A stretch of DNA of 63,615 bases, counting the filler, from Collodictyon triciliatum (lineage: Eukaryota): assembly GCA_043381765.1 (NCBI GenBank). It is 6 parts of 6 records of this genome, joined end to end, with 100 filler letters (N's around TTAATTAATTAA, not from the genome) between each part and the next. Parts side by side here need not be neighbours in the genome. Positions count along the whole stretch, not along the records: positions 23,693 to 35,427 come from JBHJMP010002327.1; 5 more parts are not named here. One strand, 5' to 3'. Positions 11,755-59,158 of the stretch are shown in pieces (position 1 is the stretch's first letter; each line of letters begins with the position of its first letter). The translations under genes and the position numbers were made by a program. The notes beneath the pieces are model-generated. The model ran no database searches. It was not told the origin of the DNA and saw nothing but the letters and a program-made list of their open reading frames with translations.

Positions 11755-11854
11755 NNNNNNNNNNNNNNNNNNNNNNNNNNNNNNNNNNNNNNNNNNNNTT
11801 AATTAATTAANNNNNNNNNNNNNNNNNNNNNNNNNNNNNNNNNNNNNNNNNNNN
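11755..11854. other. Artificial contig linker (44N-TTAATTAATTAA-44N)
   Basis: Identical 100-nt six-frame-stop spacer recurs five times in the window. Confidence 0.99.
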
Positions 11855-17292: not shown

Positions 17293-19109
<1,817 letters not shown>

Positions 19110-19599: not shown

Positions 19600-20240
19600 T
19601 TCCTTTCAATTTGTGCAGGATGGTGGAGATGTTGGCTTTGGTTCGCTGGCCATCGTTTGCATGGACGCTACTTGGTGTCTGGGTGGCGGAGAAGTAGTCG
19701 GTAATCAGGAATTGCATCCTGCAGTTTGGCCTGTAGCCCGAGTCTTGTGCTTGCATGAGAGATACAAGGCGAGGTTTGATATCTTTCATGGCTTCTTTCT
19801 ACATGTCTCTTCTCACAGGGTCTGAGTAATAAAGAACGTGCAGGTGGCGAAGAAAGCTGTTGAGGAAAGAGATTTGTATGATGTCGTTAAGCCTGTTATC
19901 AGGAATGGGTGGCTGGTTGTTGAGTCTTGCTTTGCGTGAGTATATGCGCGCTATCCACATAGTCTATAGCAAATGGCCTCACGTCACTGCCCAGAATGTT
20001 TTTGCCTCTGGACGCAGCTGTTGCAGAGGCCCAAATATCGCCTGGATTGGGCAAACAGCCGCAGCCGTCTTGAGTGTCAGTCGAAGAATCTCACCGGCTG
20101 TTTCGCGCAGGTTTTGAGCGAAGGGACATTGCACAAACGTGTGCTCAATGGATTCATCACCGTTGCTGCAAAGTGTGCATTGTTGGGAGACTTTGACAGC
20201 TTTTGCCGCGCGTGTGCCTATCCATAGCTCCCTATTAATG
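19600..20240 (-). mobile_element. Degenerate 3' remnant of an L1/Tx1-like non-LTR retrotransposon (zf-RVT zinc knuckle)
   Basis: CTLCSNGDESIEHTFVQCPFA fits the CxxC-x(4-5)-E-x3-H-x4-C C-terminal motif of L1/Tx1 ORF2, followed by TMWIAR (W-x-x-R) and in-frame stops. No RT domain upstream. Confidence 0.7.
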
Positions 20241-22686
20241 AGATGGCATAAAGCAGCAAAAAACACTGCCAAAACAAAATTAATGCAAACCATATCATAA
20301 CAAAAAAAGGAAATGATTCACTCTGTATGATATCGACCATATAATATTTTGTGTTCTCTTATGACTGCGGCACGTGAAAAAAAATGAACGAGCATGGGTT
20401 GTATGTTATGCCACCCCGCCTAGTAGTGTATATCCAGAACAAGATTATGTCTTATGGTATATGTCCAGTGATAGGTAGCATTCAGGGGCGTCCATTCAGA
20501 TGTGTGCTCCATCAAGACGGATTGAACACAGTTCTATTATATTCATAAATCTAAAGCTTCTGGAAACACATACCATTTTTTTACTTTCTGCTTTTTTGTA
20601 TCATAAATCATCGTGTGCAAAGCGACTGGGCAAATAAAAATAAAGCAAAAAATAAGAATATTTGACACTGCCTTTGCTTTACACCCCAAAAAACACGTCT
20701 GATATGCTTCGCTTCGCTAATCACTTGTATTTCTTCTATTCTCTTGTTTTTTTCATAGAGCTCATATTTGTTTGGTGCTTTTATTCGCCCTTTTTTCTAC
20801 TGTTGTATATTAACGCGTGATTTCATTTGGTGTTTTTTTCTACAGTGTTATATCGAGAAAGTATATCCGTAGAAACCGTTTTTACCTGCGGGCACATAAC
20901 CTTTACACAGGCTAATTTTGAAAGATTTTATTATGTTTTTATCTTGATTAATGCAGATGGAGTTTAAAATGATGAATAGCGTAATAACTAAATATTGTTT
21001 ATCAATATGTATAGACACAGTCACATGAAAATTTTTAATAGGCAGCCAACTTATATGACTTTTTGGAGGGTGCTTATTGTATGGATAGGTTGGTTTCTTT
21101 GTACCGAATATTTTATAGATGTATAATCTGATTTACCATTTTAATACCCATTCGGACTTGAATACCGTATATAAGCAACATATTACAACCAATATATTGA
21201 TATTCTTTTTAATGGCAAAAATTAATCAAATGCAATCAAAAATTAAAAATTCTCGTAATAAATCAATTTGAACAGGATATTGCCAATACTGTCAGTAACT
21301 CTTTTGTAATTATGAAATAAATATTTAATTGCTTTCATAAGTATGTATACGATAAAGAATGCTAACAGCGCAAGACTATCTTACATCTATGAGATATTAG
21401 TTGTAAATTGATCATTCAGCTTATCGAGCAAGATTAATACATTACGAACCAAATAAACACAGCACACATATGTAATATATTCAAACAAAATATTTTTGAT
21501 TATATGCCATGGCTAGTGCATTGTTGGCTTTGTATATGTAATCATCGTGCGTTGAATAATCAAAATACAGTCCCTAGGAGACTGGAATATCGATAATGTA
21601 ATTCACTTAGAAATTATTAATAAATCAATACTCCATGAGACACGGTAGCTGTGACTTTGACCACGGAGTCCAGAGCACGGCGTAAAGGCTTGACTTTGTA
21701 AATTATTATTTTCTCTCTTTTTAAATTTGTGTAACCCTCGATTGTTTGACCTGGCATAGTAATATATTGTTTAGATGCATTAAGTAATCATACACATAAT
21801 ATACATGATAATTGTGATGCCAGAAAACTAATATAAATCAGCTAAAGAACGTTGGTAGTTATGAGACCCTGAAGAGGAACCAAGCCGACATAAAAACCCC
21901 AAGAGAGCTGTGTTACTGTCATATGATATTTCTTGGGACGCTAATCTTACAAATAAAAGTAAGAAATCAAAAGCATATAAAGCCTATCTCATAAATTACA
22001 AGCGTAATATCAAAAAATGGGATGATAAAACTTTAGATAGAATTATCCTAACAAATAACAACTTTAAACAAAAAAATCCAAAAAAAATTAGGGAATCCAC
22101 CAAAACATCATCGCACAAATGAAATACCTAACACACGACATAGAAAACATAAATAAATTACATCTCAAACTTTCAGAATATTATTTTTGGTATAATTGTG
22201 AATAATTGCAAGATTGCACCAACCACAACATAACCAAATATAAGAAAAATCACTGTGTTTTTGTTTTACTTTTCAATCCCTTACTCAACCTCACCACTAA
22301 TTGTTGTAATATATCATAGTCTTTACTTAAATAACACTCGCGTTGAAGAATACAATAAATGCCTGACATAGACAGGTAATAAAATTCCTTGAAATCGTTT
22401 TTAAGGTAACTGATTTGTGAGTACTTTTATCAACCCGACAATTTTACCTGCCCTTCTGTCAGTCTGGAACACAATATGAACCCGCGTTGGAGTTTTTTTT
22501 TTTTTATTTACAACAGAATATGATGTCGGCGCCCGTGACTACAATATTAAAACCATCTTGGATTTAACCCACTTCAGGAATAAAAGTATATGTAAAAACA
22601 CTTTGCTATCTTTCTTTTTCAACAACCGGTATATCTTATCTTACATTCCTATTCATATCTTTCTATCTATCTTTTATTTTTTATAA

Positions 22687-23592: not shown

Positions 23593-23692
23593 NNNNNNNN
23601 NNNNNNNNNNNNNNNNNNNNNNNNNNNNNNNNNNNNTTAATTAATTAANNNNNNNNNNNNNNNNNNNNNNNNNNNNNNNNNNNNNNNNNNNN
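23593..23692. other. Artificial contig linker
   Basis: 44N-TTAATTAATTAA-44N. Confidence 0.99.
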
Positions 23693-23955
23693 AAAGGAAT
23701 AAAAAGGAATAAAAAGGAATAAAAAGGAATAAAAAGGAATAAAAAGGAATAAAAAGGAATAAAAAGGAATAAAAAGGAATAAAAAGGAATAAAAAAGCAA
23801 TAAAAACAATAAAAAACAATAAAAAACAATAAAAAACAATAAAAAACAATAAAAAAACAATAAAAACAATAAAAACAATTAAAAACAATTAAAAACAATT
23901 AAAAACAATTAAAAACAATTAAAAACAATTAAAAACAATAAAAAGGAATAAAAAG
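23693..23955. repeat. 10-mer tandem array (AAAAAGGAAT)n grading into (AAAAAACAAT)n/(AAAAACAATT)n
   Basis: Directly visible. Confidence 0.95.
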
Positions 23956-24061
23956 AGTCAAAACTGAAAACGAATTTTAAAAATAAGACTGCATATATAA
24001 AAAAAATCTCACATTCCTTTTGTAAACACCCAGATCATTCGACTGAATCAGCCACCCCAAG

Positions 24062-25264
24062 ATGCTCTCGGCTTATCTCTTCGGACTGTTTGTAATGGTC
24101 TCTTTGAACTTTCCTCAGACGATATGCACAAAAGGTGCTGCTCTCCAGCCCGTATCCAGCGAGCGACCAGAGACTGAGCCATGCCCGCCCTCCGATCTTG
24201 TGGATCTCAAAACGATAGCTCAACAGCATGGCATTTATGTCGAAGTCGATCTCCGGTACTCTTGGGAGCACAACTTTGTTGGCAGGCGCATGCCTGGCTA
24301 CGAAGAGCCTGACGCATGCTTGCTTAGGAAGCACGCAGCCCTGGCGCTTTTAGATGCAGCCAAAAAGCTTCAATCCATGGAGTTTGTAGCGGCCCAAGTC
24401 TTTGGAGGCTCCTCCTCTGAAAAGGTCAAGCTGCACTTCCGAGTTTACGATTGCTACAGACCTCAACGAACGGTAGACTATTTCGCCTCCTGGGCAAACA
24501 ATACACTAGACGATACCATGAAGTCCTATTTCTATCCGACTGTCCCGAAAGAGAGCCTCTTTTCTGAGGGATACATCGCGCTGCGCTCTGGGCATACCCG
24601 TGCCTCTACTATAGACCTCTCTTTGGTTGCCACACCACCAGACCCAAACAATCCAAGACAAAACCCAGACCCCTTTCTGCTGGGCCTCACTTTTGAACCT
24701 TGCTTCCTACCTCTTCCGATTAGACCCCACGACGCTGCGTTAGATATGGGGACGTCCTTTGATTGTTTTCACCCTGCTTCCCACACCGCATCTACAGGAA
24801 CAACATACTTGAACTCGACGATAACCTTCCCGTCAAACGTCTTATTCAACCGGAGACTTCTCAACGATACCCTTTCGGAATTTGGCTTCGTAAACTATCC
24901 TCTTGAATGGTGGCACTTTACTTACCCGACACAAGGTCTCTACTACGATTTTCCAATTAGGAAGGAAGCGTACCGCTCTGCTTTGGTCGGGTGCCCCCCT
25001 GTTGATGCAGCAGACTCTCTGCCATCTCTTTCTCCATCTTCAAAAAGCAACTCCTCACCATACCACCTTTCTTCCCTGGCCATCGCCCTGATTTCATTCA
25101 TCTCATTCTTTCTTTTCGCTGTTGTGCTGATTATATGGCACTTAACACACCGCCAAGCGAGAAGGCCTTCACTATATTCCCGTTATAAGGCATACGACGG
25201 TATTTTGATATACATGCATTCATATTGGATAGGATTGTATTCTCTTCCTTTTGTTCCCTCTTGA
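24062..25264 (+). CDS. VanX/DdpX-type D-alanyl-D-alanine dipeptidase (peptidase M15D) with signal peptide and C-terminal TM helix
   Basis: Single 400-aa ORF with DLRY...NFVGR, YDCYRPQR, SGHTRASTIDL, DMGTSFDCF, NRRLL and FVNYPLEWWHFTY. Hydrophobic N-terminus, Ser-rich linker, then LAIALISFISFFLFAVVLIIW followed by basic residues. Confidence 0.93.
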   Translation: MLSAYLFGLFVMVSLNFPQTICTKGAALQPVSSERPETEPCPPSDLVDLKTIAQQHGIYVEVDLRYSWEHNFVGRRMPGYEEPDACLLRKHAALALLDAAKKLQSMEFVAAQVFGGSSSEKVKLHFRVYDCYRPQRTVDYFASWANNTLDDTMKSYFYPTVPKESLFSEGYIALRSGHTRASTIDLSLVATPPDPNNPRQNPDPFLLGLTFEPCFLPLPIRPHDAALDMGTSFDCFHPASHTASTGTTYLNSTITFPSNVLFNRRLLNDTLSEFGFVNYPLEWWHFTYPTQGLYYDFPIRKEAYRSALVGCPPVDAADSLPSLSPSSKSNSSPYHLSSLAIALISFISFFLFAVVLIIWHLTHRQARRPSLYSRYKAYDGILIYMHSYWIGLYSLPFVPS

Positions 25265-26321
25265 GAGGGCTTTCTTAATCTTAACCCCTTATGCACGATG
25301 CACCATCGGATAACGCCGTCATTTTGTGCTTAGGGCGCATCAATTTCTCCACCGCTGAGTGATTAGCCAAAGGCGCCTTACTCCATATTTCTCTGCCCAG
25401 TTAGAGTGTGTTCCTTTCCCTTTCCCTTTCCCTTCCCCTTTCGTTTCATTTCCTTTTTTTTTAAAAAAAAAAAATAATCTCTCGTATTACCTGAATAAAG
25501 CGGGGTTGATTGCTTGGGGAGTGCTGTCTCTCGAAGCAAGACAATATTCTGTGTATCCGAAGGTGGGGACAGGCCGCTGTGCGAAAAATCTATGTCGTCA
25601 TAATTATATATCTGGAAACTATATGGTATATTAATTAATGAGATATGCTGCCATTTCAAAGACATCTAAACCTAACATATATCTAGAATGTTAACAAATA
25701 TGTTGATAAAGTAAACTATAATGTACATTGTGGCGATTCCCGAACATGACCATATTCTCTGCTTTTGATTGCCTATACATATAACAATGACATATTTGTT
25801 TTTTGTTTTGTCCAAATAGTGAAATACCTCACACATTTCTGGATAAATACACATACAGATTCTTTCTTTGAAACCTCTGCTGAATTCAAGCCTTGGCCTC
25901 AGCTTTTGGTTTCCGGCTTGATTGGCGCTTGGATGCTGGCCAAATAATCACAAATCTCTTCTGTTTGGCCACTCGCGCTCCGCCCGCTCCCAACCTGCCC
26001 GCAGCACCCGGTAACGAAGACGGCACCGAAACCCGAAGCCGACCAGCCACCACGGCCCCTCCCCCCTTATCTCCTCCTACGCCCCTCTTGTCCTCTCTCA
26101 GCCGCGAACCCCTTCCGAGAAGATCGGAGCGTTTCGATCCGGCCACCAGCTTCCCCTCCACGCCTTGTATATTTCTTGGCCGCTCCTGCAAGGACACGTG
26201 ACCTTCGCCTCCAAAGGAAAACCCGCACACTCGAAACTTTCCAAGCGCCGGACTGCCTCCTAACCTCTTGTTTCTGCAACCACACAGCTTCCGACAGCAA
26301 ACAAACCCCACAGCCTTGAAA

Positions 26322-26746
26322 ATGGTCCACAGCGATATCTGGAACTCCCACCCCCGCAAGTTCGGCCCTGGAAGCCGCGTCTGGTAGGCTCGTGTCTCCA
26401 GTTCCCCTTGCCCACCGCAACTTGCTTACCAGCCCCTCTTTTCCCTTGGAATCTAACAGTTCCACTTTTGTCTGCCCCAACCCTCCCCTTGTTTCGCCAC
26501 TCAACGCTTGATGATGCTTCTTAGCCGCGTCTGCGGAAACGGCCACGGAATCATCCGCAAGTACGGCCTCAACATCTGCCGCCAGTGCTTCCGCACATAT
26601 GCCAACGACATTGGCTTCCACAAGGTTTGCTCGTTCCTTCGTTCCTTCCTTCTCTCCCTCCCACTCGCAAAGTCCGAAATACCTCTGGGCAAAAAGCTGC
26701 TATACTTACCTCTCCCTTTTCCCTCCTCCCCCTTCAGTACCGATAA
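26322..26746 (+). CDS. RPS29: 40S ribosomal protein S29 (uS14), 3 exons: 26322-26383, 26525-26624, 26738-26746
   Basis: Spliced 56 aa [56 protein letters not shown] with the C2-C2 zinc finger; canonical GT-AG introns. Confidence 0.98.
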
Positions 26747-27154
26747 ATGACCCCAAGGAGACCGCAAAAGCCTCGGGTTGAAGCCTGCCGTCCGATCAAA
26801 GGCTCTTCAGCCTTTCCACGCTTGTAAAAGATCCTGGCTACCTGTTTCTCTACCCACACACATAAACGGGATCAAACCAAGAACCACAACCCCTCGTCCG
26901 CAGCCAGTGTTTCGATAATGTCAATCTCTTGTGCCTTCCTCCTTCCGATCCATTCTTCATATATCTTATCGTAGTCACCGCCCAAAGCATCAGGGAGTCC
27001 AGTCCCAGACGGGATATGTGGGAGTGAGGTTGCATTTATGACATTAGTTGATCTTGCTCCGCAGTCCAAAGTCGAGGGACACGACCGTGAAGGTTGAATC
27101 ACCGCCACAAACGCCTGGGCATAGGAGAAGGCGAGAAGTTAGAGGGGTTCAATC

Positions 27155-29067
27155 TCATGGGTGGGTCGGAATAATGAGACCCGTGGGATGTGACCCTCCT
27201 TCTTTTATCCTTCTTGGATATTTTCTTCTCTTTTTGCTGATTCTTTTCAAACCTGCTATTGCCTGCTCGCTGAAGACATTGCCGCTCCAGTCGACCAACT
27301 GAAGGGTTTTGCAAGACTTCGCGGCCTCGGCGAGAAGAGAGCCGGACTCTGGTGTGATTGCGTTGCGGCTGATGTCCAAACACGCGAGCGACTGTGTTTT
27401 TTTCAGCAAACCGACCAGAGGAGGCACACCTGCGTCCCTTATCTTGTTTCCCTAAAACATGAAACCATTAAGGCTGCATACCCACCCACATTCCATAGCA
27501 GGCTCCATCTACTTTCTTTGTTCTGACTAAATACGATTTTGAAAGAACGTATATGGATTATGCCAGAGAAAAGGGATGAAGACGCAGGGTGCGATAGACA
27601 CTATCATACTTCAATATCAAGCGAGTAAACGGTCGCAGAGTCCTCCAGTGCTTTTGCTATGGCTTCGATACCCGCATCACCGATGCTGTTGTTGGCAAGG
27701 TCGATGCTAATAAGGCGACATTGCGGCGAGCTATGCGTGGGGTTATCATCTTATTGGTACATAAAGATATCTCTGGGCCTGTCTTGTTGGATTGCATAGC
27801 AATCATATTGTCTGGTATTGAGCACAGCAAACCTGATATATTTCGCCATTTGTAGTGCCCCGACTTCCGTGATATTGTTACGGTCGACAATCAAGCGCTT
27901 TAGCTATAGAAATATATAATAGAAATTTTTACTTTGTGTTTGGCATGGGAACAAAATACTAAAGTAAAGCAAATACTGGTTGGCGGAAAGAATTAAGACA
28001 TATATACTATTTACGACAATTTTCTCCAGAGCAAAAGATGTACGCAATTATAGTTATGTTGTTTATTGGAAATATATATACATATAAATGTAAGTGTATG
28101 AAAGAATACTTTATCTCCCATGGTCAGTGCTGTCAAGATAATCTAAATTACATGTAAAAGAGCTAAGCCAATAAATTTGAAGAAATATGTTTCACCTGAA
28201 AAAAAAGAAGAAAAAAGAAGAAAAAAGAAGAAAAAAAGAAGAAAAAAAGAAGAAAAAAAGAAGAAAAAAAGAAGAAAAAAAGAAGAAAAAAAGAAGAAAA
28301 AAAGAAGAAAAAAAAGAAGAAAAAAAAGAAGAAAAAAAAGAAGAAAAAAAAGAAGAAAAAAAGAAGAAAAAAAGAAGAAAAAAAGAAGAAAAAAAGAAGA
28401 AAAAAAGAAGAAAAAAAGAAGAGGAGCAAATCCCTTATATTTCTTCATTTTTATACCAATAATATATATGTTTTCATCTCAATCTCATTAAGTACCTCAA
28501 GCCCGTCGTCACCAATATTATTTTTCGATATATTCAAATATGTGATGCTAGTGTTGGCAGATAGTGCCTGTGATTTCCCAAAGTTAGATATTGAATAGTC
28601 CACTTCCTATGATAGTTATTATATATCTAGTGTCATCTTACATGAGCCAAAAATTTTGAACCAGAAGGACCAATTTTGTTCCTGGAAAAGTCCACCCATT
28701 CCAGTCGATTATTACCTGATTTTAAATGTAGTTCGTAATGTTAATCTATGTGAACAGGGGACTAATTCTAATGATAATAATAATACATCTCATGAGAATA
28801 CAAACCTCTCAGTCCATCGCACAATAATTGAAGAACAAGGTCATCAAGACCACAGTTTGATAAAGTAAGTTTCTTGAGTTCTGTATAATACCTGCAAGAG
28901 TGTATATAGTAAATAATACAAAGAAACATCAGGAATGTGCGAATTTAGCGCAGCTGACAAAATTCAACAGTGATGTTTGAATAATAAAATACCTAAGGAC
29001 ATTTGATAATGAATTAAATCCCTCTAGTCCTATATCTTGATTAGCTATTTCCAAGCTAGACGAATTT
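27155..29067 (-). CDS. Ribonuclease-inhibitor/NLRC3-type LRR protein, multi-exon; 5' exon not identified
   Basis: Exons encode NSSSLEIANQDIGLEGFNSLSNVL; ELKKLTLSNCGLDDLVLQLLCDGL; ALSANTSITYLNISKNNIGDDGLE; LISIDLANNSIGDAGIEAIAKAL; GNKIRDAGVPPLVGLL..LDISRNAITPESGSLLAEA (28-aa RNI-type repeats). Confidence 0.85.
28198..28421. repeat. (GAAAAAAAGAA)n-type purine tract, intronic in the LRR gene
   Basis: Directly visible. Confidence 0.9.
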
Positions 29068-29130
29068 CTGTTTCATTTTTAATTAAGGAGGTGCGCGATA
29101 ATGAAAAGGGGATGAAAAATATTAGAAAAT

Positions 29131-29260
29131 GAAAAGAAAAAAGAAAAAGAAAAAGAAAAAAGAAAAAGAAAAAAGAAAAAAGAAAAAGAAAAAAGAAAAA
29201 GAAAAAAGAAAAAAGAAAAAGAAAAAAGAAAAAGAAAAAAGAAAAAGAAAAAAGAAAAAG

Positions 29261-29320
<60 letters not shown>

Positions 29321-29468
29321 NAAAAAAAAAGAAGAAAAAAAAGAAGAAAAAGAAAAAGAAAAAAGAAAAAAACAAAAGAAAAAAGAAAAAACAAAAACAA
29401 AAAGACAAAAAACAAAGACAAAAAACAAAAACAAAAACAAAAAGAAAAAGAAAAAGAAAAAAGAAAAC
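29131..29468. repeat. A-rich low-complexity/poly(A) tract
   Basis: Directly visible (GAAAAA)n, poly(A) and (CAAAAA)n. Confidence 0.9.
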
Positions 29469-29601
29469 AATATAGCGTTCCTGTCATTTTTATTTCCCCG
29501 TCAAGTTTGTCACCGATGAAAAGAGAATAGGAAATGCAAAAACATCAGGTGAAAGCAAATGACGAACGCATATGGGGTGCTGTATCAGGTTGCACAGAAG
29601 G

Positions 29602-32600
29602 TCATTGTGCCGACTCGATCACAGGAGGCTTTTTGAGTTGCTCAAGAAGGATGCGATTGGGCTGCGAACAAAGCTTCACCCCCTCACAGGCGATGTCGTC
29701 TCCCCGCAGTGTTGTGTGTGATGTCCAAACAACAGAAAGACTGATATAATCCTGTCCGTCTTCCTTTGTGGGTGTCCACATATAAATGAATCCGTTTTCG
29801 CCGGTTGTGATGAGAGTGTTTGTGTCCACATCGTATTCAACCGCGCGGACTTGGTTGTGAATCTGCTTCTCAAAAAGCATATCGTACTTACCGCCTCTGA
29901 CCTTGACGATGCGAAGGAAGCCTCCACGATCCCCAAAAGCAACATATTCTGTCTCTTTGATAGTAAACGTATCGCACGCATAGATTGGTGATTCACCCAT
30001 GAACAACCGCTCTTGGCCAGGGCTGCTCTCGTTATTGAGACACATATCAAAACGGTAGACAAGTCCAGTTTCGTCGCATATCACAATCGACTGCTTCGTT
30101 TTGTCTGGGTTGGTCTTTGCAAACACAGGTGTGACAGGGGTGCTTAGGCCATCGGATGATTCGATTTTGGACACTTTTTCGTCCTCTGATAACATCTTTG
30201 AAAGGCCAATGTAATCCAAAGATCGACAGACGACCATGTCATTCTCCACCGTCACAAGAAGCGTCCTCGTGGCATTAGCACCCACTTTGATGTTGAATGC
30301 ATCAACTGGGTTGCTTAAAAGGGTAATTTCATTCTCTCTTTCATCAAGTGTGAAGTTAGACTCATTTAATGCATATGCCTTCAAGCTTTTGTTTGTTGCC
30401 AAAACCAAGTATTCCCTCCCTCTCAATTGGAAAACATCGAATTGAATAACTCTTTCGGTAATTTTGAGTATCGAGATGCCTTTGCTATCGGAATCAAAGA
30501 TATTAATATGACTGAGAGAGCTTAGGTCGCTATTTAATTGGTAATACACGCCCATAAGATTCTCTATTCGCCGGGTGGCAATCCTTGGGATTAAATCCTC
30601 CATAAATCTTGACACCATGCAGTTTCCTGTAGCAAAATCCCACACTTTCAGGAAGCGGTCGCTGCTTCCCGTTACAATTAGCCCGGCAGAAGTTAATATC
30701 TTGTTCAAATCGCCAGGTAGTGGGTCTGTTGATATGTTAGGGAGGATTTTGTCTCTGGGGTGACTTATCCTGGGTGGTACGATTGATGACAGCGTATTAA
30801 TGGCTTTCCGATGCCCATTTGCTTTCTTGATCAATTCGCGGGATGTGATACTCCAGATCCACGCCGAGCTATCTTGGCAGCAGCCAAGGAGGTAATACTC
30901 GTTCATATACTTAAATACATCCAAGTCTGGAATCTCCTTGGTGTGACCCAAGAACGGGCGTAAAACAGTGGCTTCACTGACACTCCACAAGTATACCATT
31001 CTGTCAGCCCCTGAAGATACCAAATATTCTGGCTCTCCGTTATCGGCTGGAACCCATTGTATATCTCGAACAGCTTTTTCGTGCCAGTCCTTCAAAATGA
31101 TAGGACTCGCATCCAATATGCTTGTATCGAAAATGTGTATTTCTTTTTCAATAGCAACAGCAATCTTGTACCGCTTCTGATACTTGATGGCACGAATTGT
31201 TCGAACTTGTCTGTTGCTCGAGATTAAATTATGGGGCTCGCCCAGTGTAATAGCCATATTCTCTAGGCTAAATTTGATTTCTCTATATTCAATGTGGGGT
31301 AAACTTCCAGCATACATGATAAACAGTCTCCCATCCTTGAAAAAGAACTCTGTTGTATTCAAGGTACCTTTCATCTTGATTTTAGATAAGACAGAAATTC
31401 CGCCTTCTTCTCCAGTGCTCTTGTTCGGATTGAATGTTGAAAATATAAGCTGTCCATCCAATGAGGCATACACAAAGAAATGTTCATCCGAATCATCCAA
31501 GCCAAAGTGCGATTGAACTTCAGCACAAGTGTGGATGCATGTGATTTGACCACCATTGATTTTATCTTTGGGTAGTTCGAGCTTCTTCTCGCATGATATT
31601 GCATCCCAAACGAAGATGATTCCGGCTTTGTCTCCAGATATCAGGTATGTATCACCGTTTTTTTTTGAAGTTGCTATGGCTGATATTTCAATACTGCCGT
31701 GTAGTAAATGAATTCCATAATCGCATGCCTCCAAATCCCATACGGATATTATATTACTTGATGCTGTATAAAATTGTACTGATGAATCGCTCACCTCAGC
31801 GCGCCCACAATTGACAGGTTTCTGGTGAATCAGTTTCGGAAGCTGCCCAAAGTCTGTCCCTCTCATAATACAGCCATTAAATATGCACCCACGAATGTCT
31901 GCATCCTTGAATATGACTCCGCTCAAATCAGCGTTGCTGAAATCGACATTTTGTATGACCGCTTGAGATAAATCTGCCCGTGGGATTTTAACCTTCTGAA
32001 GGTTTATGGTGTGCAATGGGATTCTAGCATAGTTCAGAACTGTGATGGCTACACTGGCAGCGTTGGGCACCAGTTTGCTGGAAGTGTCACTAGCTGAATG
32101 ACGAATGATATCCTTGAGAGACTGCGCAAAACTGATGCTTTTGAAGGTATAATCAGCCAGAAATTGTTTGACCAAAAAATCTTTCTCCTGAAGATTAGGA
32201 AAGACAGCACCTTTTTCTTTCCACCTCTTGCTTTCAATTTCCTGTATGGCTTTCTTCGCTCCAAAAAACTCTTGAATAGAACGGTGTATAAATGCATACT
32301 GCTCCTCCTTTTCCGATGTCTGGAAACGTCTAATCAAGGTACCTTTTCGAACCTCTAAGAGTTCATATGTGTCATCAAAGAAGGAGCCCCACTCGTGACA
32401 TGACATATGAATATCCTTCGTCTTTTTTACCGTGGCCACTGTTGTCTTTTTCGTAATGAGTTTTTGTGCGAATGCAAAGGAAAATTCATCATAATTTTTC
32501 TTGTTCGAAACAAGTGGGTTGCTGGCACTCTTTTCTTTGCTAGAATGCCAGAGTCCGATGAACCTATCGTAAATTTCGAATCTAGATAAAGTGGCAACCG

Positions 32601-35196
32601 GTTCATTTCTCTTTTCCTCCAGATAACTCGGCAATACTTTCATAATTAGAGATAAGATAAAAGGAGATTCTGCCGCTTCCTTTAAACTAGGGGAGCTAAA
32701 AATATTCGATGCTATTTCTTGGTGTGTAAGTAGAATTTTTGGTTGGGATTCGACAAATGTCTGAATATATTTCTTGATCTGTTCATTTCCAAAAGGCTGA
32801 AGAACAAGATACTCCACCGGCTTTCTTATATCACCTTTGTGAACTGTTTTTACGCCAAACTTCCGTTCAAGGTCATGCTTAGTTTCTTGGAGATTGTAGC
32901 GATACGTGATAATGACGTGATACCGCTGAAGTAAATCAATATTTTTTTCAATGATTTTGAACGAGCCAGCTTCGTTCAATTCATCATATCCATCCAGTAT
33001 AAATACACCAAGGCTGGCCTCAATAAGCTTTGCATATTCAGACTTCATGTTCTTATGGATATGGTCTAGCAACTTTGCTGGGTTGTTAACTGAAGGAAGA
33101 TTAATGATGATAGGGTAAATGGTTCTTTGCAGAGAGGGGGCTTTACCTAGCCTCTCATGCTGTTTTGTTGCAAATGTGGATTTTCCTGCTCCAGATTTTC
33201 CCAGTATCACAAGAGTATGAGGGGGCCCTTTAAGAAATTGGTCAACGACTTCATCTGCATCATAGAGCTTTTCGTCATTTAGGCCTCGTTTGGCTTTAAG
33301 TTCTACATAAATTTCTTCATTTTCATCATCTGTGATTTTATAAGAGTCTGTACTTGTGCTATGGTCTCGGGATGAGGATAATCTGTAAAATTCTTCTTGT
33401 GCTTGAGAGAAAATATCGGTTGGAAGATAAGTCTCATTCGCGTATGCCGTAGAAGCATTCAGTCTTTCAAGATGCTTGCCCAGCTCTTGCTCAACCAGAG
33501 AGAGAAACTTTGATTTCCTCATGCCCTCCTTATTTTCTTGAAAAATATTGGAAACAGACTTTGTGTGCACTTCTGCTTGTCCTAATTTGCGAAGCTGGTA
33601 GATTGCATGATGTCCGTATTGGATGGGTTGTGCGTCGATGTACTCATCACCCACAAGTTTCTCTAACCAAACCAAGGCCTCTTTGGAGCATGATTTAATA
33701 GGAAGTTGAGCAATGCGTATCACATCCTCGAACACAAACCAAAGTAGTTCTGATGACTTATCCTTTGATAGAATACATTCGGAGAATAGTGATGCATCCC
33801 CTAGTCTATGGCTAAGCACCAATGATTTAAAGAAAATATAATCATCATACCACACTTCTCGCCCTTCACACTTTCTGAATGAGACTTTGATTTTGTCATA
33901 CTCTGCGAGCACGTCGGTTTCGATGCGGTACTCTCTAAAATGGGAATCATCTGGGCTATGGTACACATGGTACTCTGTGGTAAACGACTCTATCTTGTTG
34001 AAAATGCGAACAAAGCCTTGGTAGACCTTCTCAAACATAGGGTTATATCGCGGAACTTTACTGATGTCGGATTTCAACAAAAATTCTGTGATTCTTCTCA
34101 TATTTTCATGGTCAACATCAACTTTAATGTTTCTCAATACAATTGAATCTAGCAAAAGTCCTAGAGAATGAAAAAGAAAGACCAACTGGTCCTCATACTT
34201 TAGCATCTGCGATTCAGACTCGGGAACCCTGATTATAATTTGATTCAATAATTTCGTTACATGGACTTGTGACTTTGGTGCATCTGAAAACAGCAGCGTC
34301 TCGGCCATGCACCGAATGTAGTAGGGCTCTGTGTACATGCCCTCCAACTCTGGCTTTGTCAGTATCACCCACAGCAGATTGCAAAACTCTCTGTCGCACG
34401 TGCGCGCGAGTAGTCCTGCCTCAGAAATATGCCTAACGGTGATGCTGGCACTTTTCATGACAATACGAAGAATTATTTTTCCAAGGAATTTGTGACCCTT
34501 CTTCTTTTTGAAGCGGATCGACTGAGCGAGCGTGAGGGCGTTTGTTGGATTGCGATGAGCTTCTGTTGAATCCAGATTCACCAACTCCTCGAACTTTCTG
34601 AACTGGAAGGGTAACTTTTCTTTGCCCGCTATTCGCCCTGGGTTTCTTTCATCGAGTGTATTTCCCATGTCAGTGATGTGAACTGGTATAGCTTTCTGGG
34701 GTGTATCTTTCTTGGTGGCCTGTGGATTTTCTTCATCGCTGTAGGCGTCCCTTTTATCTTCGTTATCCGATGAATTGTCTTCATTCTCGCTTTCAGTGAC
34801 TGCTTCAATATCCAGTTGTTTTTCTTCCACATCATACATTAGCTTTGGCTCGAATGTTGACTGTACAATCCCACCGCCACAGAGTGTTTGGGTTATTCGT
34901 ACTATGGGAGAGCAATACGGGTATCCTGCGCCAAAGGGTGTATTCTTAGCTAGCTTTCCCCATGTCACATCAAACCCAAGACCCGCCTTGTCTAAATCGA
35001 GAAAAGATTCGAGCAGAGAGTCAGATGATAATAAGTATTGGCACACAGCTGCTGGTATCACCAGTTCAGCTTCGATCCATTTCTCTGGACTGCTTGGTTG
35101 CTCAATAAAAGCTTGGATGTGGTTTTCACGGTCCCCAGTCCCTTGTGTCACACGGAGGTGAAGCCTGACGCTGGGTTGCTCTGTGGAGCCTCTCAT
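29602..35196 (-). CDS. Intronless STAND NTPase: uncharacterised/helical N-terminus + NACHT + pentapeptide repeats + WD40 repeats (NLR-like)
   Basis: 1864-aa ORF. Walker A GKSGAGKST, Walker B VFILDGYDE, SPFILSLI, winged-helix motif FIHRSIQEFF, pentapeptides ADLSQ/VDFSN/ADLSG/ADIRG/CIFNG, and WD repeats (LISGDKAGIIFVWD; LVSSGADRMVYLWS; LGHTKEI; GHRKAIN; VTGSSDRFLKVWD). Confidence 0.95.
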   Translation of the reverse strand: MRGSTEQPSVRLHLRVTQGTGDRENHIQAFIEQPSSPEKWIEAELVIPAAVCQYLLSSDSLLESFLDLDKAGLGFDVTWGKLAKNTPFGAGYPYCSPIVRITQTLCGGGIVQSTFEPKLMYDVEEKQLDIEAVTESENEDNSSDNEDKRDAYSDEENPQATKKDTPQKAIPVHITDMGNTLDERNPGRIAGKEKLPFQFRKFEELVNLDSTEAHRNPTNALTLAQSIRFKKKKGHKFLGKIILRIVMKSASITVRHISEAGLLARTCDREFCNLLWVILTKPELEGMYTEPYYIRCMAETLLFSDAPKSQVHVTKLLNQIIIRVPESESQMLKYEDQLVFLFHSLGLLLDSIVLRNIKVDVDHENMRRITEFLLKSDISKVPRYNPMFEKVYQGFVRIFNKIESFTTEYHVYHSPDDSHFREYRIETDVLAEYDKIKVSFRKCEGREVWYDDYIFFKSLVLSHRLGDASLFSECILSKDKSSELLWFVFEDVIRIAQLPIKSCSKEALVWLEKLVGDEYIDAQPIQYGHHAIYQLRKLGQAEVHTKSVSNIFQENKEGMRKSKFLSLVEQELGKHLERLNASTAYANETYLPTDIFSQAQEEFYRLSSSRDHSTSTDSYKITDDENEEIYVELKAKRGLNDEKLYDADEVVDQFLKGPPHTLVILGKSGAGKSTFATKQHERLGKAPSLQRTIYPIIINLPSVNNPAKLLDHIHKNMKSEYAKLIEASLGVFILDGYDELNEAGSFKIIEKNIDLLQRYHVIITYRYNLQETKHDLERKFGVKTVHKGDIRKPVEYLVLQPFGNEQIKKYIQTFVESQPKILLTHQEIASNIFSSPSLKEAAESPFILSLIMKVLPSYLEEKRNEPVATLSRFEIYDRFIGLWHSSKEKSASNPLVSNKKNYDEFSFAFAQKLITKKTTVATVKKTKDIHMSCHEWGSFFDDTYELLEVRKGTLIRRFQTSEKEEQYAFIHRSIQEFFGAKKAIQEIESKRWKEKGAVFPNLQEKDFLVKQFLADYTFKSISFAQSLKDIIRHSASDTSSKLVPNAASVAITVLNYARIPLHTINLQKVKIPRADLSQAVIQNVDFSNADLSGVIFKDADIRGCIFNGCIMRGTDFGQLPKLIHQKPVNCGRAEVSDSSVQFYTASSNIISVWDLEACDYGIHLLHGSIEISAIATSKKNGDTYLISGDKAGIIFVWDAISCEKKLELPKDKINGGQITCIHTCAEVQSHFGLDDSDEHFFVYASLDGQLIFSTFNPNKSTGEEGGISVLSKIKMKGTLNTTEFFFKDGRLFIMYAGSLPHIEYREIKFSLENMAITLGEPHNLISSNRQVRTIRAIKYQKRYKIAVAIEKEIHIFDTSILDASPIILKDWHEKAVRDIQWVPADNGEPEYLVSSGADRMVYLWSVSEATVLRPFLGHTKEIPDLDVFKYMNEYYLLGCCQDSSAWIWSITSRELIKKANGHRKAINTLSSIVPPRISHPRDKILPNISTDPLPGDLNKILTSAGLIVTGSSDRFLKVWDFATGNCMVSRFMEDLIPRIATRRIENLMGVYYQLNSDLSSLSHINIFDSDSKGISILKITERVIQFDVFQLRGREYLVLATNKSLKAYALNESNFTLDERENEITLLSNPVDAFNIKVGANATRTLLVTVENDMVVCRSLDYIGLSKMLSEDEKVSKIESSDGLSTPVTPVFAKTNPDKTKQSIVICDETGLVYRFDMCLNNESSPGQERLFMGESPIYACDTFTIKETEYVAFGDRGGFLRIVKVRGGKYDMLFEKQIHNQVRAVEYDVDTNTLITTGENGFIYMWTPTKEDGQDYISLSVVWTSHTTLRGDDIACEGVKLCSQPNRILLEQLKKPPVIESAQ

Positions 35197-35299
35197 AGCT
35201 TGGGTGTTTAGCCTGATGCATTTTCTTTTCTAATGAGCGATATGTGTCCTTCTTTTGTGTCTTTGTGTAGATCTGCATGTTTTGGGTCTTTTGTTTTGT

Positions 35300-35335
35300 T
35301 TTTAGTTATTTGTTTTTTTTTGCTTTTTGCTTTTT

Positions 35336-35404
<69 letters not shown>

Positions 35405-35527
35405 TTTTTTTTTTTTTTTTTTTTTTTNNNNNNNNNNNNNNNNNNNNNNNNNNNNNNNNNNNNNNNNNNNNTTAATTAATTAANNNNNNNNNNNNNNNNN
35501 NNNNNNNNNNNNNNNNNNNNNNNNNNN

Positions 35528-40384: not shown

Positions 40385-41359
40385 NNNNNNNNNNNNNNNN
40401 NNNNNNNNNNNNNNNNNNNNNNNNNNNNNNNNNNNNNNNNNNNNNNNNNNNNNNNNNNNNNNNNNNNNNNNNNNNNNNNNNNNNNNNNNNNNNNNNNNNN
40501 NNNNNNNNNNNNNNNNNNNNNNNNNNNNNNNNNNNNNNNNNNNNNNNNNNNNNNNNNNNNNNNNNNNNNNNNNNNNNNNNNNNNNNNNNNNNNNNNNNNN
40601 NNNNNNNNNNNNNNNNNNNNNNNNNNNNNNNNNNNNNNNNNNNNNNNNNNNNNNNNNNNNNNNNNNNNNNNNNNNNNNNNNNNNNNNNNNNNNNNNNNNN
40701 NNNNNNNNNNNNNNNNNNNNNNNNNNNNNNNNNNNNNNNNGATTGGGATCCTCTCCAAACACATTGCAGTTGTGTGCCTCGTTTGAATCAGTCCCAATCA
40801 TCAAAACATGAACCACAGTATAAATATCCGAAGCTTCCAACCCAAGTTATTTTTGACAGCTTTCNNNNNNNNNNNNNNNNNNNNNNNNNNNNNNNNNNNN
40901 NNNNNNNNNNNNNNNNNNNNNNNNNNNNNNNNNNNNNNNNNNNNNNNNNNNNNNNNNNNNNNNNNNNNNNNNNNNNNNNNNNNNNNNNNNNNNNNNNNNN
41001 NNNNNNNNNNNNNNNNNNNNNNNNNNNNNNNNNNNNNNNNNNNNNNNNNNNNNNNNNNNNNNNNNNNNNNNNNNNNNNNNNNNNNNNNNNNNNNNNNNNN
41101 NNNNNNNNNNNNNNNNNNNNNNNNNNNNNNNNNNNNNNNNNNNNNNNNNNNNNNNNNNNNNNNNNNNNNNNNNNNNNNNNNNNNNNNNNNNNNNNNNNNN
41201 NNNNNNNNNNNNNNNNNNNNNNNNNNNNNNNNNNNNNNNNNNNNNNNNNNNNNNNNNNNNNNNNNNNNNNNNNNNNNNNNNNNNNNNNNNNNNNNNNNNN
41301 NNNNNNNNNNNNNNNNNNNNNNNNNNNNNNNNNNNNNNNNNNNNNNNNNNNNNNNNNNN
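40385..41359. other. Scaffold gaps (40385-40740, 40865-41359) around a 124-nt island
   Basis: N runs with no linker motif. Confidence 0.98.
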
Positions 41360-47246: not shown

Positions 47247-47346
47247 NNNNNNNNNNNNNNNNNNNNNNNNNNNNNNNNNNNNNNNNNNNNTTAATTAATT
47301 AANNNNNNNNNNNNNNNNNNNNNNNNNNNNNNNNNNNNNNNNNNNN
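47247..47346. other. Artificial contig linker flanked by T-rich and (AAAAAAC)n repeats
   Basis: 44N-TTAATTAATTAA-44N. Confidence 0.99.
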
Positions 47347-47495: not shown

Positions 47496-50400
47496 ATGGA
47501 CAGCTACAAAGATCACAGGATGCCTGACAGACACCTCGTCGATGGGCGCTGGACTATCCCCGACGAATATAACTACGCCTTCGACGTTTTTGACAAGCAA
47601 GCTGAGAGGTTAGTTGGCCACCATATCCCACACACTGCCAAAAAAAGAAAAAAAGAAAAAAAGAAGAGAAGAAAGAGAAAAAGCTTTAAAGGTGCTGGGG
47701 CTGACACCAAAACGTCCAGGTATCCCCACAAAACAGCGCTGCTGACAATATCCAGCGATGGACTTACTTCCGCGCAACACAGCTTCGATGAGCTCCGGAC
47801 CCTTTCCATGAAACTGTCGCTGTCTCTTTGTAGCATGGGCCTCGCAAAAGGAGAAAAGGCAATTCTGCTGATGGGCCAAGTTCCAGAATGGTAGCTCTGT
47901 CCATAATCACCATGCTTTTGGCGATGCAAAGATTATCAAAGATAATCATACATGACATATTCTTTCTCTCGCAAAAAGAAAGAAAAATAGACCATCCCGT
48001 TGCACCCCCGTCCATTTGCTTTTTCTTCATGTTTTCTGAAATGCAAGCGCCATCTCTAACCAACCAGGTACATCTCCTCTCTGGCGTTGATGCGGGCAGG
48101 GTTGATATCCATCCCAACCACCACGCTCAATACAAAAAATGACCTTGCATATCGCTGCCAAATATCTGAGGCATCTATTATTTTTGCGGCTTATGACCAG
48201 GTTTGTCACCACATGTTAGTCACATTAATAAACCCGGTTTCATTCAAACCTTTTTAGATCCCAATTTTCCGCACTGCATTAGATTCAAAAGCTAAGCCTC
48301 GTACATTCACGCTCTCTCTTGAACTCATAACACTACAAAAATGCTTCTCAACAATATATAATTAGGTCCCCAAAGTTGCTGAGACAGTTGCCGAGTGTCC
48401 CCAGATCAGGCACATAGTGGTTATAGGCCCGGGTTTGCTTCCACGCAGTTCTTCACATGTTTCGTGGCATTCAATCTCGGTATATCAGCGATGATACCTT
48501 TACCCCAATTACTTGAGCACCTTTACAACAGATACGACGAGTTGTTAATCTTCCTTTGGATAGATAGTTACACAGACATATTTGGGAAATCGAAAAATCA
48601 TTCACATGCAACCAAAAACAATTATTTCTGTAATCGATTAAACAGACTCTGATTGCCGAAGCTCGAGCTAGCGTTGTAACCCCATACGATTTGCATGGTA
48701 AGACCAAGAGCAACGACCCGCTGCTGATATTTTTCACAAGTGGAACAACTGGAAAGCCAAAAATGGTTTTGCATTTGCACAAGTGGGCCATTTTTTCTGT
48801 CAGTTTCAGTATTTTGATTTAGATATGTTCACAATCATAAACCTGATTCCGAAATTTCGAAACACAATAATTGTAGATACCCCATCGGCCATGAAGTTAC
48901 TGTCAAGTATTACGATTTACGAGTGAATGATGTACACTGGACTCTTTCAGATCCGGGCTGGGCAAAGACTTACTATGGCAAATGTTTCTAATCCATTCCA
49001 CCCCACAGTTACCATAAACTTTGTGAGTGATAAACCACACGTTCATTGTTTTTTTTTTTATTCAGTCATAGGCCAGTGGATGATTCCTTGCACTATTGTC
49101 CAGCATGACCACCAAGGCAAGTTTGAGCCGAAGCTTGTCTTAGATATCATAACCAAGTATAAAGTAAGGAAACTTTTGTTTAAGCCTGATGAGAGGAAGA
49201 AAAAAATGCCCTAGCTCCGTCGTTTGCTTATCGTTGATTTTAATTGAGATTACGTCATTCTGNNNNNNNNNNNNNNNNNNNNNNNNNNNNNNNNNNNNNN
49301 NNNNNNNNNNNNNNNNNNNNNNNNNNNNNNNNNNNNNNNNNNNNNNNNNNNNNNNNNNNNNNNNNNNNNNNNNNNNNNNNNNNNNNNNNNNNNNNNNNNN
49401 NNNNNNNNNNNNNNNNNNNNNNNNNNNNNNNNNNNNNNNNNNNNNNNNNNNNNNNNNNNNNNNNNNNNNNNNNNNNNNNNNNNNNNNNNNNNNNNNNNNN
49501 NNNNNNNNNNNNNNNNNNNNNNNNNNNNNNNNNNNNNNNNNNNNNNNNNNNNNNNNNNNNNNTTTTTTTTTTTTTTTTTTTTTTGTTGTCCTGTATATTG
49601 CACATCAGGTCATCACAACATGGTTTGAAAAGACTGGATGTCTGATTCGTGAGTATTATGCCCAAAGCGAAACCACCATACTTGTTGGAAATGGGCCCCG
49701 TGAGAAATTAAAGGAAGGAAGCATGGGAAAGCCGGCCCCTGGTCAGAAGATTTGTATAGTGGATGATGAGGTAGAAATCATATAACGCGTTGATTTTCCT
49801 GACATAATGAGTTTGGTTCACATCTGGAGGTGAAAGCCGAAACATCGTATACCCTGTTTTTTCGAAGTGGTTAAAGAGGCCTTTCTTGTTTGAATGTCAC
49901 AAAATATATCGACTTTGCCCAGGGGAATGAAGTGCCGCGAAACACACCCGGGCACATTGCTATTTCGGTCGACCCTCGTCCACCGGGCTTGTTTGTTGAG
50001 TACTGGAAAGACCCTGAGAATACTGCGAATGTATTCCATCACGGGTGGTACTTTACGTTGGTACGATTATTATCATGATTCAAGGACAATGTCACTGCGA
50101 ACAATATTGAAATTTACTGTAGTTCGTAAATTCATCTCACCATCAATTATCTTTAATCTCGCCTTTCTTAATCTTTGGATTTATGATCCAGGACAAGGCG
50201 TATGAAGGTTTTTCTTTTTCCGCTAGTCTATACCAGAACAAATGTTATATCTGCTAATAAATCAACTGCATTTGATTGCATCAGCACACTAATATTGTCT
50301 GCCGTATCTAAAGTTAACGTGATTCATTTACTACTTAATCGCACATCCAGATGATGATGGCTACTTCTGGTATGTTGGCAGGGCAGACGATGTCATCAAA

Positions 50401-51023
50401 TCAGGGGCGTACCGAATCGGTCCTTTTGAAATCGAATCTGCACTTCTGGAACACCCCAGCGTCAAAGAATCTGCTGTCATTGGAATCCCCGATGAGGTAC
50501 GCTTGTGTGTGCCATATTCTGCCAACCAACCAAGAGATGTGTAAACCAGCTGTTGGCAGTTTGGCAGCTAAAATCCTGTCCAAAATCAGGAGCGCGGCCA
50601 GATTGTTAAGGCCTTTGTCATTCTGCTTCCTGGTTTCGTGGCATCCAAGCAGCTTGCGACGGAATTGCAGGTAAGGGGCATGAAAAAAAAATACAGAAAT
50701 ATCAAGTCTGACTTGCCGAAAAGTTGAGGAAAAAGCGGCCCAAGAAACACAACTGGTCAGCTGGCAAACATAACGAACTTTTCTTCAAGGCGAAATGAAC
50801 ACCTGACTTTCCCTGAGCTTGGGAACGTGTTTGTGAGGTCTAAAATTACACCACACACCTGTTATCTATCCAGGAGCATGTCAAGAAGACAACGGCGCCA
50901 TACAAGTACCCCCGGCTGATTGAGTTTGTAGACGAGCTTCCAAAGACAATCTCTGGCAAAATCCAACGCGCCCAGCTCCGACTCCGAGAGGCGCAGAAGG
51001 CCAAGGCAAGAAGCAAGCTCTGA
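47496..51023 (+). CDS. Medium-chain acyl-CoA synthetase (ACSM-like AMP-binding enzyme) with C-terminal SKL; one exon lost in gap 49263-49562
   Basis: [110 protein letters not shown]. Confidence 0.95.
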
Positions 51024-59058: not shown

Positions 59059-59158
59059 NNNNNNNNNNNNNNNNNNNNNNNNNNNNNNNNNNNNNNNNNN
59101 NNTTAATTAATTAANNNNNNNNNNNNNNNNNNNNNNNNNNNNNNNNNNNNNNNNNNNN
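59059..59158. other. Artificial contig linker
   Basis: 44N-TTAATTAATTAA-44N. Confidence 0.99.

Follow-up and report, generated by a model that had tools for sequence, protein, structure and literature searches.

How does a freshwater phagotrophic flagellate come to carry a gene for a dipeptidase of the VanX type, and what might such a protein do in a eukaryotic cell? This question is raised by an open reading frame (ORF) of 400 codons, beginning with ATG, which is present at positions 24062..25264 (+) of a stretch of DNA of 63,615 nucleotides (nt), fillers included, from Collodictyon triciliatum (assembly GCA_043381765.1). This whole stretch will be referred to as the window, and the product of the gene as the window protein. 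The observations described below indicate that the gene belongs to the eukaryote, that its product is a member of the VanX/M15D family with all of the catalytic residues in place, and that a predicted C-terminal membrane anchor, present also in the ortholog from Diphylleia rotans, has been added to a domain of probably bacterial origin.

The dipeptidase gene and its transcripts

A run search listed 21 sequencing runs, of which 20 contained some of the words of the sequence and none as many as half, and four runs (X1–X4) were examined. Run X1 is a cDNA library, whose contigs end in the template-switch oligo and, on the neighbouring RPS29 gene, in poly(A). On the dipeptidase gene its contigs cover 24148–24538, 24606–24858, and 24835–25198, the last of which continues at 25333–25403. 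The joint from 25198 to 25333 (cut +1) lies on a contig of 472 nt, the shorter side of it being 71 nt, and it reveals a GT..AG intron of 134 nt (25200–25333, GC content 0.40) in the part of the gene coding for the tail. Hence, the ORF at 24062–25264 ends in 21 codons that are read-through of this intron, and the true stop codon is found at 25360–25362. Because of this cDNA-supported intron, the product is 388 amino acids (aa) long, as given by translation of the coordinate-joined exons, rather than 400. A preliminary description of this locus had regarded the catalytic region as intronless; the gene as a whole is not. The features of the gene, with the evidence for each in brackets (CDS, coding sequence; KD, Kyte–Doolittle hydropathy; pLDDT, predicted local distance difference test; UTR, untranslated region), are as follows:

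24062..25199 (+), exon 1 of the dipeptidase CDS, codons 1–379 and the first base of codon 380 (ORF; X1 cDNA contigs)
24062..24127 (+), hydrophobic leader, residues 1–22, probably a signal peptide (KD 1.43 over residues 4–22; model helix 2–16; leaders in homologs)
24188..24961 (+), VanX/M15D catalytic domain, residues ~43–300 (PF01427; 1r44; invariant columns; model pLDDT >90 for the greater part)
24962..25072 (+), post-domain segment and Ser/Pro-rich linker, residues 301–337 (11 Ser in 301–341; pLDDT <50 at 321–332)
25073..25141 (+), single predicted transmembrane helix, residues ~338–360 (KD maximum 3.02; model helix 335–366; basic residues after it)
25142..25199 (+), first part of the predicted short cytoplasmic tail (translation; cDNA contig reaching the splice donor)
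25200..25333 (+), spliceosomal intron, 134 nt, GT..AG, GC 0.40 (X1 cDNA contig)
25334..25403 (+), exon 2, with the last 8 full codons, the stop codon at 25360–25362 and the beginning of the 3' UTR (cDNA contig)

Transcription of the gene is also evident from two lake/freshwater metatranscriptomes, which match it with 0–1 mismatches, X2 over 24271–24613 and 24634–24784 and X4 over 24444–24645. In X3, which is probably a DNA run, one contig of 272 nt lies within the gene and shows 3 mismatches. No contig from any of the four runs was found for 23990–24147 or for 25414–25947. The dipeptidase gene is a genuine eukaryotic nuclear gene that is transcribed and spliced, and the spliced cDNA excludes contamination as its source. 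The earlier assessment that contamination is unlikely is thus upheld by transcription seen in poly(A)/SMART cDNA and by a spliceosomal intron, and a lack of expression, which would have counted against the earlier reading, is contradicted by X1, X2 and X4.

Catalytic domain, relatives and membrane anchor

The assignment of the window protein to the VanX/M15D family is based upon several comparisons. Its score for the Pfam family Peptidase_M15 (PF01427), where the gathering score is 27, amounts to 72.6 bits (E 4.8e-20), and the only solved structure that it matches in sequence is that of VanX (1r44; E 1.1e-18, HMMER). In the HMMER alignment to 1r44, residues R133, H178, D185, E282, and H285 of the window protein correspond to R71, H116, D123, E181, and H184 of VanX. 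All five are invariant in alignments of 14 and 11 rows, and in a larger alignment of 72 rows R133, H178, D185, and H285 again do not vary, and conservation of E282 is 90% or more. The same alignment to 1r44 places Y66, D130, S176, and D234 opposite VanX Y21, D68, S114, and D142, which we take, from the mutagenesis literature, to be substrate-binding positions. In VanX, H116, D123, and H184 are described as zinc ligands and E181 as the catalytic base (bioRxiv 10.1101/2023.10.13.562161), and R71 as assisting in substrate binding (PMC5778951). An AlphaFold2 model of residues 1–379, constructed from the 72-sequence alignment, has a mean pLDDT of 86.2 and a predicted template modelling score of 0.75. 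When this model was compared with the PDB by Foldseek, the sole match with E <= 0.001 was 1r44_A (E 4.4e-18), with a template modelling (TM) score of 0.85 on the target, whereas the TM-scores of VanXY and VanY chains were only ~0.4. By its profile match, its residues and its VanX-type fold, which has the core of the LAS superfamily with a predicted closed dipeptide pocket, the window protein is therefore a member of M15D/PF01427. It is predicted to hydrolyse D-Ala-D-Ala, and the earlier statements that the protein is of the VanX type and retains every VanX catalytic equivalent hold in full.

The relatives of this protein were sought in several ways. A word-indexed search gave 556 matches among 7976 candidates, the best 120 of which are 234–307 aa in length and share 35–46% identity with the window protein. 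These best 120 of the 556 are mostly actinomycete, proteobacterial, or unnamed metagenomic sequences, together with two sponge annotations and one EukProt entry; a EukProt transcript from Protostelium is among the eukaryotic VanX-like members, and the 120 matches listed by the profile search include no further named eukaryote. An exhaustive HMMER scan of 1.84 billion representatives yielded 1887 matches with E <= 0.001. The best of these (P0122) scored 305 bits and the second 151 bits. P0122 is the EukProt Diphylleia rotans transcript EP00002_P016629, which is 46% identical to the window protein over 305 aa; this ortholog was found by the exhaustive scan only, having been missed by the word-indexed searches. 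A protein atlas returned one cluster (0.76), of the M15 family and without taxa. Lastly, a scan of metagenomes recovered 256 relatives among 290 matched stretches, the best 80 of which are all at most 41% identical. An ORF could be recovered in 22 of these 80 loci, with a median GC content of 0.635 and in no case a tail longer than 40 aa.

The layout of the window protein outside of its catalytic domain was examined by hydropathy and in the model. Besides the leader (residues 4–22), there is one strong candidate transmembrane segment at ~338–360, where the KD value rises to 3.02, and this is followed by the sequence H-R-Q-A-R-R. The model places helices at 2–16 and 335–366 and disorder at 321–332, and Ser makes up 11 of the 41 residues in the linker region 301–341. 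The sequence also contains four N-x-S/T sequons. Due to the leader, the linker and the single transmembrane segment with its basic flank, a type I layout, in which the catalytic domain would lie outside of the cytoplasm, is the reading that fits these features, and the earlier proposal of such a topology, with a Ser-rich stalk and one transmembrane helix, agrees with both the hydropathy and the model.

To distinguish inherited from added features, a set of 383 proteins was compared, 357 of which contain the EWWH-type motif and 317 of which have an N-terminus that looks full. A hydrophobic leader is present in 282 of these 317, and both of the Cys motifs (D-C-[YF]-R-P and [FY]-D-C-[FLM]) are found in 292 of the 357; the alignments of 14 and 11 rows show no variation at the four cysteines of the window protein (C86, C131, C214, and C235). 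The homologs of 234–307 aa, with their leader and cysteines, will be referred to by the working name of the secreted four-cysteine M15D subfamily, and the window protein shares both of these characteristics with it. The tail beyond the EWWH motif has a median length of 20 residues in the 357 homologs. A transmembrane helix following the domain is predicted in only 9 of them, which form five clusters, viz. the window protein, its Diphylleia ortholog, and P0126, P0137, and P0145. The last three are unnamed environmental clusters from JGI (Joint Genome Institute), and none of the anchored clusters bears a bacterial name. The anchored architecture is thus rare, and it occurs in two named species. 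These comparisons indicate that the leader and the four cysteines, being so widespread in the homologs, were inherited from the secreted bacterial subfamily, and that the linker, the transmembrane helix and the tail were added to it. Accounting for the signal peptide and cysteines as features of eukaryotic re-targeting, as had been done earlier, is contradicted by these counts, whereas the membrane-spanning architecture, which might have proved common in bacterial homologs, is not so.

Origin, proposed role and alternatives

In two phylogenetic trees the window protein and its Diphylleia ortholog form a pair with a support of 100% by the Shimodaira–Hasegawa-like approximate likelihood ratio test (SH-aLRT), on a stem of 1.2–1.3 changes per column. 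In a quick tree of 74 rows, from which those rows of P0122–P0214 in which any of three motifs was missing had been left out (P0137 and P0145 among them), this pair branched with the sponge sequences and P0126 (SH-aLRT 87, unstarred). In a quick tree of 45 hand-picked rows it was placed beside sequences from Desulfarculaceae and Lamprobacter. As the two trees place the pair differently, its deeper position is unstable and we rejected the naming of any bacterial donor. In an approximately unbiased test, the grouping of all five anchored rows in one clade was not rejected (p 0.618), and the tree constrained to such a clade was better than the free quick tree by 7.76 log-likelihood units. This result allows for one origin of the anchor, of which it is no demonstration, and long branches may attract each other.

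Because bacterial or metagenomic sequences make up the overwhelming part of the family and its eukaryotic members are patchy, a bacterial origin of the dipeptidase is the simplest reading of these sequences. Of the lateral acquisition proposed in the preliminary description, the bacterial origin therefore stands at that strength, while the M15D trees point to no stable donor. A more far-reaching possibility, which we consider unlikely in its entirety, is that the five anchored clusters make up one eukaryote-specific type I clade that arose once from a secreted bacterial enzyme, that its members reside in the membrane of the food vacuole or feeding groove of phagotrophic protists, and that they would be the first dedicated enzyme of a pathway by which the D-amino-acid peptides of peptidoglycan-bearing (cyanobacterial) prey are digested and D-alanine is salvaged.

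With moderate confidence in the proposal taken as a whole, we suggest that the gene encodes a zinc D,D-dipeptidase of VanX/M15D type, derived from the secreted four-cysteine bacterial subfamily, and that the ancestor shared by the window organism and Diphylleia would already have possessed this enzyme. Within this lineage a flexible Ser-rich linker, a transmembrane helix at the C-terminus and a short basic tail in the cytoplasm would have been added to the enzyme, and an intron to its gene. The leader, if cleaved as a signal peptide, would provide for entry into the endoplasmic reticulum, and the helix would then tether the catalytic domain to the luminal or outer side of a membrane, either on the surface of the feeding groove or in a food vacuole, where D-Ala-D-Ala (perhaps also close D,D-dipeptide analogues) from lysed peptidoglycan-bearing prey, e.g. 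cyanobacteria, could be cleaved to D-alanine. A surface or phagolysosomal location and a role against prey walls, both of which had been put forward before, are made plausible by the reported cultivation of the host's relatives on Microcystis. According to bioRxiv 10.1101/199125, Diphyllatea are known from freshwater alone, and PMC3351787 describes a feeding groove and pseudopods which serve in the capture of prey.

A number of observations weigh against this proposal. RNA cover is lacking for the 86 nt at the start of the CDS, where the leader is encoded, and in one contig (depth 3.8) the template-switch oligo abuts position 24148. We read this as probably a truncated cDNA and not the true start, since a start at 24148 would remove the conserved residues 43–76, including Y66. 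The linkage of the dipeptidase gene to RPS29 on DNA comes from the assembly alone, no contig bridging the two being found in the four runs or among the best 80 metagenome relatives. The score of the protein against the NCBIfam VanX equivalog NF033115 is 98.3 bits, where 320 are required, and against the DdpX equivalog (NF007557/PRK10178) it is 63.2 bits, where 176 are required; the dipeptidase is neither a VanX nor a DdpX equivalog. Further, the pair formed by the window protein and its Diphylleia ortholog has four specific inserts, and due to these its specificity may differ from D-Ala-D-Ala. On reading the sequence of the spliced tail, no canonical sorting motif was seen in it. Free D-Ala-D-Ala is a small pool, and algae that are wall-less or without peptidoglycan are among the known prey of these flagellates.

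Some of these points bear upon an alternative in which the protein is anchored as described but has another or a wider substrate, such as the terminal D-Ala of stem peptides (in the manner of VanXY or VanY) or other D-amino-acid peptides of cyanobacteria. The four pair-specific inserts, the long stem branch and the scores far under both equivalog cut-offs would all accord with this, as would the feeding of the host's relatives on Microcystis and the degradation of microcystin by Diphylleia rotans, which is announced in the title of a paper. The model, however, is far nearer to VanX, a closed dipeptidase, than to either VanXY or VanY, and the residues at the catalytic and the substrate-binding positions of VanX are all retained. 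We regard this alternative as unlikely. A non-digestive function, viz. the control of, or defence against, bacteria (symbionts or pathogens) at the surface or in vacuoles, or the metabolism of an endogenous D-amino-acid compound, appears to us quite unlikely. Homologs are carried by symbiont-rich sponge genomes, and for the homolog in mites, the function of which is called unknown, the supplement of PMC9113151 suggests a symbiont-related role, but the lineage of the present host is that of a voracious phagotroph. Moreover, the substrate of VanX-type enzymes is a free cytoplasmic precursor dipeptide, which is met externally only after bacteria have lysed, and no endogenous source of D-Ala-D-Ala is known in such eukaryotes. 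Lastly, that the gene is a bacterial contaminant, an assembly chimera, or the dead relic of a transfer is highly improbable, for although the VanX/M15D family is mostly bacterial, bacteria are present in cultures of such flagellates, and no independent DNA contig joins the gene to RPS29, it has a cDNA contig spliced over a GT..AG intron from a library with other contigs that are poly(A)-tailed, an intact reading frame with a complete set of catalytic residues, a divergent Diphylleia ortholog with the same eukaryote-type anchor, AT-rich and repeat-rich flanks next to intron-bearing genes, and no closer bacterial or metagenomic locus than 41% identity (best 80 of 256 relatives).

The peptides of peptidoglycan that contain D-amino acids resist ordinary proteases and phagotrophic eukaryotes must dispose of them, and to our knowledge very few dedicated eukaryotic enzymes for this purpose have been recognized. 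That bacterivores acquire enzymes for the degradation of cell walls by transfer is well established. On the proposal favored here, the present gene would represent a bacterial D,D-dipeptidase that was domesticated in a deep-branching lineage of predators (CRuMs), where it gained an intron and a eukaryote-style anchor, the latter being conserved between two species that are ~50% apart in sequence. It offers a testable case of a transferred enzyme rebuilt for the endomembrane system, and it may be relevant to the success of these flagellates on cyanobacteria that form blooms. It overturns nothing, as eukaryotic genes resembling VanX had been noted previously.

Surroundings of the gene and comparison with known systems

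Six pieces, each of ~11.7 kb except for a shorter last one, make up the window, which is thus a mosaic; they are joined every ~11.8 kb by linkers of the form N44-TTAATTAATTAA-N44, and claims of linkage across these linkers are void. The linkers and the gene next to the dipeptidase are located as follows:

11755–11854, linker
23593–23692, linker
35428–35527, linker
47247–47346, linker
59059–59158, linker
25948..26889 (+), RPS29 gene, with one 5' UTR intron, two CDS introns, and poly(A) at ~26880–26889 (X1 cDNA)

Further N runs, masked in appearance, are found at 40385–40740, 40865–41359, 49263–49562, and 56214–56977. The dipeptidase gene and RPS29 both lie on the piece 23693–35427, with no N between them and none up to 29320. 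The CDS of RPS29 begins at 26322, which is 960 bases past the true stop of the dipeptidase, in keeping with the distance of about 1 kb to an intron-containing RPS29 on the same contig that had been noted earlier. The cDNA places the introns of RPS29 at 26010–26286, 26383–26523, and 26623–26735, with joints from 26009 to 26287 and from 26382 to 26524, cDNA pieces at 26524–26622 and 26736–26888, and loose ends of poly(A). The 5' UTR intron measures 277–279 nt, the alternative joints being from 26007 or 26009 to 26287, and the transcript has three poly(A) sites within 10 nt and a cDNA depth in X1 of more than 1000.

The GC content is 0.20 upstream of the dipeptidase gene vs. 0.50 in its exon, and the flanks are repetitive. 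Arrays of short A-rich tandem repeats (units e.g. AAAGGAATAA and AACAATAAAA), with a GC content of ~0.2, occupy 23693–23950, 28150–28480, and 29045–29530. Beyond RPS29 there is a multi-exon gene for a leucine-rich repeat (LRR) protein of the RNI (ribonuclease-inhibitor) type at 27114–28944 (-), with long AT-rich introns of low complexity; in X1 an intron at 27114–27251 and a cDNA 5' end at 27451 belong to it. It is followed by an intronless ORF of 1875 codons at 29602–35229 (-), the product of which has a NACHT domain (671–827), pentapeptide repeats (~1063–1127), and WD40 repeats (~1337–1582). This NACHT-pentapeptide-WD40 protein resembles those of the NLR type, and an insert of pentapeptide repeats in it is unusual. 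No ligase or dehydrogenase, as expected for a cluster of the vanH-vanA-vanX type, was seen on the piece 23693–35427. In a Pfam scan of the other ORFs of the window (n = 201), the only matches were to pantoate ligase, AMP-binding, MFS_2, and zf-RVT. These correspond to exons for a pantoate-beta-alanine ligase at 17536–19106 (+), a zf-RVT fragment from a LINE-like element with reverse transcriptase at 19982–20317 (-), exons for an AMP-binding enzyme at 48634–51020 (+), and, on another piece of the window, two exons for an MFS_2 (GPH-type) transporter at 61086–62770 (-). The larger MFS_2 exon (61086–61976, -) shares 77% identity with a transcript of Diphylleia rotans, the sole strong match among the longer proteins. 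Taken with the dipeptidase and the freshwater runs, this lineage marker makes the host most likely a diphyllatean (collodictyonid, CRuMs) distinct from the EukProt strain, an assignment drawn from two genes, one of them on another piece of the mosaic. A fungal host, at first considered in view of the NACHT-WD40 ORF and the C-terminus of RPS29, was rejected after the matches to Diphylleia.

One protein with which the window protein can be compared is VanX of Enterococcus faecium (1R44; MEROPS M15D). The two have in common the fold, the H-D-H zinc ligands, the catalytic Glu, the Arg, and the aligned Tyr, Asp, Ser, and Asp positions. VanX is a cytoplasmic enzyme of 202 aa encoded in the vanHAX resistance operon, whereas the window protein has 388 aa, is only 27% identical to it in the structural alignment, and has in addition a leader, four conserved cysteines, extra loops, a linker, a transmembrane helix, and a tail. 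Its gene is flanked by those for RPS29, LRR, and NACHT-WD40 proteins in place of the van neighborhood. The window protein can also be compared with the secreted bacterial M15 D-Ala-D-Ala dipeptidases (234–307 aa, from actinomycetes, proteobacteria, and metagenomes), with which it shares the leader, the four cysteines, 35–46% identity in the domain, and, as may be predicted from the leaders, a catalytic domain that works outside of the cytoplasm. The bacterial proteins differ from it in being soluble, none that bears a bacterial name having a C-terminal transmembrane helix, and in lacking the four inserts of the window/Diphylleia pair. The exported enzyme of this kind that has been studied is PcgL of Salmonella, a periplasmic D-Ala-D-Ala dipeptidase.

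The Diphylleia protein (P0122), which is known from a transcript alone, shares with the window protein the four inserts, a leader, a C-terminal transmembrane helix with a basic flank, and a post-domain Cys-Pro-Pro-Val-Asp motif, and neither the motif nor the inserts occur in any other aligned homolog. The linker and tail sequences of the two proteins are unrelated. At residues ~398–404 the tail of P0122 has an Asp-x-x-Leu-Leu-like motif followed by acidic residues, which is absent from the tail of the window protein. Motifs of this kind serve as signals for sorting to endosomes.

Other eukaryotic members of the family have been described, and the novelty of a eukaryotic VanX, as first supposed, cannot be maintained. 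PMC9113151 reports a horizontally acquired D-Ala-D-Ala dipeptidase in storage mites, with homologs in rotifers; the mite protein is 352 aa long, its function is called unknown, its best match is from a Rickettsia, and, unlike the window protein, it begins at the domain without a leader. Cyanophora has a vanX, and the enzyme is needed there for its own peptidoglycan-walled plastid, according to PMC6704402. The sponge proteins annotated as 'D-alanyl-D-alanine dipeptidase-like' (257–268 aa) possess a leader but no anchor, and the Protostelium transcript adds a further eukaryotic record. The mite, rotifer, Cyanophora, and sponge members belong to the same Pfam family as the window protein and are read as acquisitions from bacteria. 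In the literature searched, which comprised papers available without subscription, no membrane-anchored or protist D-Ala-D-Ala dipeptidase has been described. In comparison to all of these known systems, what is new in the present gene is its conserved membrane anchor, its intron, and its deep-branching predator host.

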